Origin: Escherichia phage vB_Eco_J-01
Sequence record: PQ438393.1
DNA length: 64,000 nt
Direction: 5' to 3' (one strand)
The position numbers were made by a program, and so were the translations under genes. Positions 44,805 to 44,886 of the stretch are shown piece by piece. The stretch's first letter is position 1. The number at the start of each line of letters is the position of its first letter. The notes below the pieces were generated by a model. It ran no database searches, was not told the DNA's origin, and worked only from the letters and a program-made list of their open reading frames with translations.

Positions 44805-44886
44805 TGGCCGGGGTGACAGGATTCGAACCTGCATACTCCAATTACTCGGTTAACGCCTGATTAGAAGTCAGGTGAGATACACCCCG
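44805..44886 (-). tRNA. atypical tRNA-like gene: UCU (Arg) anticodon hairpin, no canonical D-arm
   Basis: Perfect GC-rich 7-bp acceptor CGGGGUG/CACCCCG and T-arm (loop UUCGAAU); hairpin CCUGA-CUUCUAA-UCAGG lies only 7 nt after the acceptor, leaving 23 nt before the T-arm. Confidence 0.45.

Follow-up and report, generated by a model that had tools for sequence, protein, structure and literature searches.

A candidate tRNA-Arg(UCU) with a rewired D-arm in phi92-like and other phages

Can an RNA that carries the anticodon hairpin of a transfer RNA (tRNA), but in which no room seems to be left for a D-arm, still be a tRNA? The question is raised by an 82-nucleotide (nt) tRNA-like RNA encoded on the minus strand at positions 44805–44886 of a 64,000-nt stretch of Escherichia phage vB_Eco_J-01 (sequence record PQ438393.1), the whole of which is hereafter called the window. 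The original prediction had described the element as an Arg(UCU) tRNA-like gene of D-arm-less architecture with an expanded variable region. Comparison with its relatives leads us to regard the element as likely to encode a phage tRNA-Arg(UCU) that is functional and has a rewired core, on a scaffold that is widespread, phage-specific, and largely unannotated. The D-arm appears to be present but rewired, with its 5′ strand and its loop placed 3′ of the anticodon arm.

Layout of the element and its long-range helix

Read from 5′ to 3′, the RNA runs CGGGGUG UAU CUC A CCUGA-CUUCUAA-UCAGG CGUUAACC GAG U-AAUUGGAG UAU and continues into the T-arm as GCAGG-UUCGAAU-CCUGU CACCCCG G CCA. Its parts, all on the minus strand, are as follows.

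44880–44886, minus strand: 5′ strand of the acceptor stem (positions 1–7), CGGGGUG, forming a perfect stem of 7 base pairs (bp) with 44809–44815
44877–44879, minus strand: linker U8-A9-U10, which does not vary in alignments A1 and A2 and whose conservation among 108 sequences is 97% or higher
44874–44876, minus strand: C11-U12-C13, 5′ strand of the long-range helix, pairing with 44845–44847
44873, minus strand: A14, proposed position-26 analogue, between C11-U12-C13 and the anticodon stem
44856–44872, minus strand: anticodon arm CCUGA-CUUCUAA-UCAGG, with the anticodon UCU at 44865–44863 and with U33 and A37 present
44848–44855, minus strand: internal-loop linker CGUUAACC, joining the anticodon stem to the 3′ strand of the long-range helix
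44845–44847, minus strand: G40-A41-G42, 3′ strand of the long-range helix and putative counterpart of the D-stem 5′ strand (canonical positions 10–12)
44836–44844, minus strand: putative displaced D-loop U43-A44-A45-U46-U47-G48-G49-A50-G51, with UAA and GG conserved to 97% or more
44833–44835, minus strand: linker U52-A53-U54 to the T stem, with the A-U before the stem at least 97% conserved and U54 as the proposed analogue of Y48
44816–44832, minus strand: T-arm GCAGG-UUCGAAU-CCUGU with a canonical T-loop, 99.1–99.5% paired and covarying
44805–44815, minus strand: 3′ strand of the acceptor stem, CACCCCG (44815–44809), discriminator G (44808), and encoded CCA (44807–44805)

The features on which the original prediction relied, namely the perfect acceptor stem, the canonical T-arm, the length of 82 nt, the UCU hairpin starting 7 nt after the acceptor stem, and the 23 nt separating the anticodon arm from the T stem, are all present in the sequence. 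Outside the two linkers the element has the canonical dimensions of a tRNA: a 7-bp acceptor stem, a 5-bp anticodon stem with a 7-nt loop (U33 and a purine at 37), and a 5-bp T stem with a UUCRANY loop. U8 and A9 are likewise the canonical tRNA bases at their positions, and the U8-A9-U10 bases were not imposed by the first two patterns used to find homologs.

The Rfam tRNA model (RF00005) matches 44808–44886 on the minus strand over its full length (model positions 1–71) with 38.6 bits against a gathering threshold of 29, the E-value being 1.4e-4 for the whole window and 3.8e-7 locally. Together with the CUUCUAA anticodon loop, this match bears out the assignment as an Arg(UCU) tRNA-like gene. 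In the alignment to the model, 15 D-arm positions are deleted, 4 nt remaining there, and an insertion of about 20 nt falls in the variable region. Thus, the search with a covariance model did not recover a conventional cloverleaf, and neither this alignment nor the sequence contains a D-arm hairpin (a stem of 3–4 bp with a loop) between positions 10 and 25. ARAGORN did not call the element on the minus strand in its standard, relaxed (-ps80 and -ps60), or metazoan-mitochondrial (-mt, -mtx, and -mtd) modes; a plus-strand "tRNA-Trp" from the relaxed runs is a poor mirror artefact. Matches of the element to other Rfam families were chance hits below threshold, such as PreQ1 (15.4 bits against a threshold of 39). 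The single-sequence fold is marginally better than those of shuffled sequences (z = −1.87), and the reality of the element was therefore judged by comparison with its relatives.

Homologs were collected from IMG/VR with independently designed patterns, each of which freed a different part of the element. In the first seven lineages aligned, the CUC of the 5′ linker covaries with the GAG of the 3′ region, the two being CGC and GCG in Stanimal and CUUC and GAAG in FH3. Among 43 distinct sequences, the pairs 11:42, 12:41, and 13:40 are each formed in all 43, with 20 double-sided changes and no single-sided one. When 108 sequences were compared, the 12:41 pair was formed in every one and in all four Watson–Crick types (UA 49, GC 27, CG 19, and AU 13), and the 13:40 pair was formed in 107 as CG, GC, UA, or AU. 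C11-G42, which is otherwise invariant, is replaced by A-U in contig L090 and by G-C in contigs L149 and L077. The pairing also holds in 53 sequences that had not been selected by the first pattern. In a set of 77 sequences with less than 86% pairwise identity, the helix is 99.6% paired and shows 64 double changes and a single one-sided change, the acceptor and T stems being 99.4 and 99.5% paired, respectively. RNAalifold recovers the 11–13/40–42 helix from the alignment alone. The acceptor stem (99.3–99.4% of cells paired, with covariation at all seven pairs) and the anticodon stem (93–96% paired and covarying) behave similarly in the homolog alignments, and each of the four helices shows compensatory changes in a set of more than 100 diverse sequences.

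The small hairpin that the minimum-free-energy (MFE) fold places in the variable region, CCGA-GUAA-UUGG (38–41/46–49), does not share this behavior. In the 43 sequences its pairing amounts to 75% and a double change occurs once; the hairpin is broken in FelixO1, Ep030, FH3, and Stanimal and is omitted by RNAalifold; its pairs 38:49, 39:48, and 41:46 are formed in 41–54% of the 108 sequences (41:46 in 44 of them). Because no variable-region hairpin is conserved and covarying, a class II tRNA with a long variable arm was also rejected.

These results bear on the possibility that the RNA is truly D-arm-less in the mitochondrial style, with an enlarged variable region compensating for a D-stem and D-loop that have no counterpart. 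Such a reading would account for the lack of a hairpin at positions 8–15, for the deletion and insertion in the Rfam alignment, and for the small variable-region hairpin of the MFE fold; moreover, metazoan mitochondrial tRNAs lacking the D-arm read AGN codons (PMC4013460). We nevertheless regard it as quite unlikely, since that hairpin is unconserved and its bases instead form the covarying helix with the 5′ linker, and since the helix is followed by a UAA..GGA motif, a Levitt-like covariation, and an identity-linked base (see below). The canonical T-loop, the unshortened length of 82 nt, and the absence of a linked EF-Tu- or synthetase-like partner also speak against it. The original description as D-arm-less with an expanded variable region therefore stands as far as the missing conventional D hairpin is concerned, but the region supplies one strand of a covarying helix and a D-loop-like motif, which indicates D-arm equivalents in another backbone order and not a mitochondrial-style truncation.

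In the rewired reading that we prefer, C11-U12-C13 would correspond to the 3′ strand of the D-stem (canonical positions 23–25), because A14, the analogue of position 26, and then the anticodon stem come next. G40-A41-G42 followed by U43 to G51 would map to canonical positions 10–12, 13, A14, R15, Y16, Y17, G18, G19, N20, and N21, and U52-A53-U54 would lead into the T stem like the end of a variable loop. The motif U-A-A-(N)-N-G-G-A lies directly 3′ of the helix and is invariant in both subfamilies of the scaffold. The internal-loop linker, which may make contacts in the groove of the helix, is 8 nt long in subfamily A and 3–5 nt (e.g. UGAAA) in subfamily B. Although the subfamilies differ in the internal loop (CGUUAANN and UGAAA) and in the 3′ linker (GUAU and CACAU), U8-A9, UAA, and GG are conserved to 97% or more in both. 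In addition, the base at position 45 and the one just ahead of the T stem change together: of 112 distinct copies, 110 have A with U, the remaining two (one in each subfamily) have G with C, and none is half-changed. This covariation of 45:54 from A:U to G:C is what would be expected of the 15:48 Levitt pair.

In yeast tRNA-Phe, position 9 contacts the 12:23 pair, 45 contacts 10:25, 21 adjoins 8:14, and 48 pairs with 15. The new joins in the phage RNA (9 to "23", "43" to "10", and "21" to "48") thus link residues that are neighbors in the canonical structure, which makes an L-shape geometrically plausible. We propose that a block comprising the D-stem 5′ strand and the D-loop has been swapped with a block comprising the D-stem 3′ strand and the anticodon arm, and that the rewired RNA would retain the stacking of the D-stem on the anticodon stem, the pairs U8:A14 and R15:Y48, and the elbow between G18G19 and the T-loop. 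The arrangement may have originated by internal duplication of the segment containing the D-arm and the anticodon arm, followed by loss of the outer copies.

Distribution and annotation of the scaffold

The window belongs to a phi92-like Justusliebigvirus, with 99.7% identity to JLBYU50 and 99.0% to phi92. A sensitive BLASTN search with the bare 82 nt as the query found near-full-length copies in 253 isolate phage records. The carriers are Felixounavirus (FelixO1, wV8, and EC6), Justusliebigvirus, Kolesnikvirus (Erwinia phage Ep030), the Asteriusvirus jumbo phages (PBECO4), Mydovirus, Klebsiella BIS47-like phages, FH3, Serratia phage Kamaji, Streptomyces Karimacvirus, and many uncultured contigs; altogether, phages and viral contigs hold more than 150 distinct copies. 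No match to the element was found in 5,426 complete E. coli genomes. When 185,579 species genomes were scanned by pattern, only three hits appeared, all in contigs of metagenome-assembled genomes and one of them in a tRNA array. On these results, a host or prophage origin of the element was rejected.

A covariance model built on the rewired structure (R1) scores the family at 63–98 bits and the window copy, the only one in the window, at 97.0 bits; canonical tRNAs reach at most 38.6 bits. The outlier is a 90-nt extended copy in contig L109 (3407–3496), which scores 46.9 bits.

In T5-like phages, the match to the element is confined to its 3′ third and lies inside a normal, annotated tRNA-Arg(UCU). 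The near-identity of the acceptor stem and T-arm to those of this T5-type tRNA raises the possibility that the element is a decayed gene, i.e. a pseudogene or fragment left by a deletion in the D-arm of a T5-type tRNA-Arg(UCU). Rejection by ARAGORN and the labels "tRNA-OTHER" and "tRNA-Undet", given to the element in two records from tRNAscan-type pipelines, would suit a decayed gene. However, four helices and the linker motifs have been kept by compensatory changes in more than 150 distinct sequences from unrelated phages, and the window copy has a strong promoter of its own, so that we regard decay as effectively refuted and its probability as very small.

Annotation of the feature is otherwise almost always absent in the sampled records, or the feature is overlain by a coding sequence (CDS) named "hypothetical protein" or "HNH endonuclease". 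In the GenBank record of phi92 (L001), the stretch holding the element is blank. The same record contains a 151-nt "hypothetical tRNA" at 5375–5525 inside the CDS of the NAMPT-like gp108 and a second one at the position of ARAGORN's tRNA-Met. In FelixO1, an annotated HNH endonuclease CDS (L004 1554–1946) begins within the 3′ end of the tRNA, and the true start seems to be an in-frame ATG that follows the tRNA closely. In Salmonella phage ST11, the T-arm and the acceptor 3′ strand are duplicated about 30 nt downstream of an intact copy (L010 ~1584–1640). The ST11 duplication and the FelixO1 overlap have the appearance of traces left by mobile HNH genes and of annotation errors caused by the missing tRNA call. 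Four records named as Campylobacter phages, MG065639 (A150), MG065645 (A145), MG065656 (C3), and MG065689 (A110a), are 98–100% identical to E. coli phi92-like phages over the region of the element, and these "Campylobacter jejuni" phage records are probably contaminants or mislabelled.

The open reading frames (ORFs) within 3 kb on both sides of the element were compared across 106 non-redundant loci. They include no protein family common to all loci and no EF-Tu- or synthetase-like partner linked to the element. The sole recurrent neighbor is an HNH endonuclease, which is found in 21 loci in variable position and orientation; a co-travelling protein or a fixed cassette of tRNA and HNH gene was therefore rejected.

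Several other unusual tRNA-like genes were encountered. The rewired Arg(ACG) copy at L045 10182–10274 (minus strand) and the Arg(UCG) copy at L109 3407–3496 (plus strand) are 90–93 nt long and contain an extra hairpin between the D-loop analogue and the T stem, indicating that a true variable arm can be accommodated there. Two weak matches to the model (36–38 bits), at L042 9–87 (plus strand) and L082 4585–4664 (minus strand), are tRNA-Ser-like (UGA and GCU) with imperfect acceptor pairing; a short UAU-type linker replaces the D-arm, and a long variable hairpin is present. These two genes may be decayed, or they may represent additional non-canonical tRNAs. The tRNA-Asn(GUU) of the window (44001–44085, minus strand) is 85 nt long and has a normal D-arm and an extra variable-region hairpin, GAAC-GAAA-GUUC, giving it a class II look. 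To our knowledge, long variable arms in bacteria are expected only in the Leu, Ser, Tyr, and Sec tRNAs. ARAGORN also calls tRNA-Asn genes of 83–87 nt in L066, L071, L072, and L079, and 85-nt tRNA-Lys(UUU) genes in L025, L027, and L035.

Amino-acid identity, codon demand, and expression

The determinants recognized by bacterial arginyl-tRNA synthetase (ArgRS) are A20, the strongest, together with C35, U/G36, and A/G73, and those of isoleucyl-tRNA synthetase (IleRS) include U20, U21, A73, and the anticodon (PMC9976931). The window copy has the UCU anticodon, discriminator G, and A50 after the GG. In the 108 copies of the first scans, C35, U/G36, and A37 are each present without exception, a purine discriminator occurs in 100, and CCA is encoded in 73. 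The scaffold has no conventional D-loop, and equivalence of the base after GG to position 20 is deduced from its context; this base is A in 107 of the 108 copies and U in Ile-type copies.

Five Arg anticodons occur on the rewired scaffold (UCU, CCU, UCG, ACG, and GCG), often several in one contig: CCU, UCG, and UCU in tandem in L149; UCU, GCG, and UCG in L109; UCU and ACG in L090 and L071; UCG and UCU in L075; and CCU and UCU in L077. A further set of 89 distinct elements was obtained with subfamily-B spacing and with the anticodon and the base after GG left free. Arg anticodons (UCU 36, CCU 9, ACG 6, and UCG 1) are accompanied by A after GG in 52 of 52 cases. Ile-type anticodons (UAU 30, GAU 3, and CAU 3), plus one UAC, are accompanied by U after GG in 36 of 37 cases and by A73 in all 37. 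Two distinct sequences with the subfamily-A scaffold likewise combine UAU, GGU, and A73, and every anticodon in the set is one step from another in the set. An "Arg-only scaffold" was an earlier impression that came from a pattern forcing GGA, and it was abandoned when unbiased scans gave Ile-type members. A pattern in which one body is shared and the synthetase identity marks change along with the anticodon would be difficult to account for if the RNA were not aminoacylated. A second unusual AUA-reading form, separate from the rewired Ile(UAU), is seen in these phages: tRNA-Ile(UAU) genes of 91–96 nt, often beside a rewired tRNA-Arg, have a normal D-arm, a long variable-arm hairpin, and the loop CUAGAU(G/U) (L034 4163–4256, minus strand; L063 2516–2609, plus strand; L053 1612–1702, plus strand; and L077 6269–6364, plus strand).

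The rewired tRNAs also tend to occupy slots that canonical tRNAs leave empty. The array around the window element consists of 16 ARAGORN-callable tRNA genes in 2.7 kb (42391–45136), and no other tRNA-Arg is among these 16. A canonical tRNA-Arg with the same anticodon as the rewired copy was found in one of 83 loci (L040). Arrays of 22–26 canonical tRNAs (Felix-like, L025/35/41, and L056) contain Arg(ACG) and lack canonical Arg(UCU), and L046 combines canonical GCG, UCG, and CCU with rewired UCU. In 24 arrays with at least 15 tRNAs, our script counted two "canonical" Arg(UCU) genes, one in L072, where the rewired copy is UCG, and one in L077 that is actually a second rewired copy.

AGA accounts for 10.9 per 1000 codons and for 28% of the Arg codons in 53 long ORFs of the window, and it is used at about 2 per 1000 in E. 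coli K-12, where AGA/AGG and AUA are among the rarest codons. Usage is uneven across the window (ORFs 26635–28614, 33995–36544, 45883–47616, and others). AGA makes up none of the 28 Arg codons in the NAMPT-like gene beside the array and almost none in the likely major, apparently highly expressed structural genes; it makes up 24 of 47 in ORF 26635–28614 and 40–86% in many morphogenesis genes, the maximum of 86% being reached in small ORFs. This unevenness may reflect expression level, timing, or gene origin.

An RNA of unusual core might accept a different amino acid in place of Arg, in which case AGA would be reassigned or ambiguous during infection; the unusual core could alter synthetase recognition, and Arg codons are often reassigned in bacteria (PMC8629427). 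The meaning of AGA was examined by a Codetta-style check on alignment columns built from homologs of at most 60% identity. In the terminase, the nine alignable AGA codons fall in columns with 62% R and 18% K, compared with 63% R for CGT codons, and Arg is near-invariant at some of the AGA columns (0.99 and 0.94). At the 17 AGA sites pooled from the terminase and a second gene, the fraction of R is 0.40, compared with a background of 0.033, that of K is 0.18, and no other residue recurs. The comparison of homologous proteins thus shows AGA columns that are Arg-rich like CGT columns and offers no recurrent alternative residue, and the Arg identity elements of the tRNA are conserved; as judged from these alignments, AGA means Arg in this phage, and recoding is highly improbable.

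Another alternative is that the RNA has no role in translation and is a tRNA mimic. It might tie up a host tRNA-targeting nuclease or modification enzyme as a decoy or sponge, or it might serve as a regulatory RNA or as a primer. Its non-canonical core and the canonical Arg(UCU) kept beside the rewired one in L040 would suit such a role, as would the fact that phage tRNA arrays take part in conflicts with host anticodon nucleases. We consider a mimic unlikely, because it would need neither to fill missing isoacceptor slots nor to carry five Arg and several Ile-type anticodons with linked switches at the position-20 analogue and the discriminator that follow the identity rules of the synthetases. 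Moreover, the acceptor stem and T-arm, the discriminator, and CCA are maintained under covariation, and the demand for AGA is high in a phage whose array has no other Arg tRNA.

The element is preceded by a promoter, as had been predicted (TTGACA-N17-TATAGT, with a start at the 5′ end of the gene).

44898–44926, minus strand: sigma70-type promoter with −35 TTGACA (44926–44921), a 17-nt spacer, and a TGn-extended −10 TATAGT (44903–44898)

It matches the consensus at 11 of 12 positions and is the top-scoring sigma70 site of the tRNA array. The end of the −10 element lies 11 nt ahead of the mature 5′ end, and transcription is predicted to start near 44892–44890, i.e. 4–6 nt upstream of that end, leaving a leader of the same length for removal by RNase P. 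TG-extended TTGACA sites (10 of 12) also lie at 44786–44757 and 43486–43457 on the minus strand, immediately upstream of tRNA-Ser(UGA) and tRNA-Gly. The scan of the array gave 14 promoter-like sites where 6.4 were expected, and these extra strong sites suggest that the array may use several internal promoters and not be one operon.

We infer from these features that the RNA is expressed, folds into an L-shape, is charged by ArgRS, and is used by the ribosome. The element's own promoter would drive transcription, and RNase P would trim the 5′ end, the CCA being already encoded at the 3′ end. Host ArgRS would then charge the RNA through A50 (the A20 analogue), C35, U36, and G73, and the charged RNA would decode AGA, a codon heavily used by the AT-rich phage and poorly served by E. 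coli tRNA.

Several points weigh against this interpretation. The helix that defines the scaffold is just 3 bp long, a fourth pair being present in about 15% of the copies. The pattern scans fixed some nucleotides, one of them imposing GGA, so that the conservation of some linker bases is partly forced. The D-loop equivalence and the L-shaped fold are deduced from patterns in aligned sequences and not from a structure. The identity marks have exceptions, since the copy at L109 478–558 (identical to L240) combines UCU with GGC and U73, L220 combines UAU with GGA, and the discriminator is not a purine in 8 of the 108 copies. The Ile-type copies may stem from two or three switches, so that the correlation with the position-20 analogue comprises few independent events. 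Finally, L040 holds a canonical and a rewired Arg(UCU) together. On a more speculative level, the altered core may have been selected for escape from host or phage nucleases, or from host modification enzymes that read the D-arm or the variable loop.

Relation to known tRNAs and significance

The closest conventional relative is the T5-type tRNA-Arg(UCU) (L011 1457–1531), which shares with the element the CUUCUAA loop, a near-identical acceptor stem and T-arm, the discriminator G, the encoded CCA, the UAU before the T stem, and presumably the task of decoding AGA. Its D-loop is AAGGGAG where the element has AAUUGGAG. Unlike the element, it has a variable loop of 5 nt and, between positions 10 and 25, the normal D hairpin GUCU-AAGGGAG-AGGC, and it scores 28.5 bits with model R1, compared with 97.0 bits for the window copy.

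Mitochondrial tRNA-Ser lacking the D-arm resembles the element in having no D hairpin, in reading AGN (some with UCU), and in having been initially missed or misclassified. Mitochondrial tRNAs of this type are as short as about 54 nt, have lost the interaction between the D-loop and the T-loop, and need a co-evolved SerRS and EF-Tu2 (PMC4013460). In contrast, the phage RNA is 82 nt long and has a canonical T-loop, a GG-containing D-loop analogue, a D-stem equivalent, and the marks of Arg or Ile identity.

A non-canonical order of segments is also seen in algae such as Cyanidioschyzon merolae, which have circularly permuted tRNA genes. In these genes the 3′ half precedes the 5′ half, and a circular intermediate yields a canonical mature tRNA (PMC3978253 and PMC3728597). 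In the phage element, the 5′ acceptor strand comes first and the 3′ acceptor strand, with the encoded CCA, comes last within one contiguous 82-nt unit, as is normal, and no order of its segments restores a canonical cloverleaf. Because the swap is internal to the D-arm halves, the mature phage RNA itself would be non-canonical.

Allo-tRNAs and tRNA-Sec-like 8/4 and 9/3 forms are likewise non-canonical and were mined from genomes and metagenomes including those of phages; they have altered acceptor and T lengths and retain the D hairpin (PMC5389517), whereas the phage element has a canonical 7/5 arrangement and a changed D-arm connectivity. The alloacceptor remolding known from mitochondria (PMC4783518) provides a parallel to the change between Arg(UCU) and Ile(UAU), which are one step apart. 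Remolding confers a new identity on a canonical body through a change of anticodon, and the phage switch also changes the position-20 analogue and the discriminator. Our search of open-access full-text papers and preprints, outside which the subscription-only literature lies, turned up no phage tRNA described as D-arm-less or rewired. The element thus appears to be a tRNA with a core connectivity for which we found no description in the open-access literature.

On a broader level, we see an even chance that these RNAs form a natural class of topologically permuted elongator tRNAs, in which the D-arm halves are swapped and the L-shape is kept, and which are served by ordinary ArgRS or IleRS, EF-Tu, and the ribosome. 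The class would be confined to phages, spread across unrelated families, re-tuned between Arg and Ile, and overlooked so far.

At least 253 sequenced isolate phages carry this unannotated tRNA gene, sometimes under a spurious CDS or a mis-started HNH CDS. Because the gene is unannotated, counts of phage tRNA repertoires and codon-matching analyses are biased at AGA/AGG and AUA. Outside organelles, the connectivity of the cloverleaf has been regarded as essentially invariant. If the rewired structure proposed here is true, the bacterial translation machinery would read the shape of a tRNA and a few of its bases, not the order of its strands, and the scaffold would offer a natural starting point for engineering orthogonal or nuclease-resistant tRNAs.

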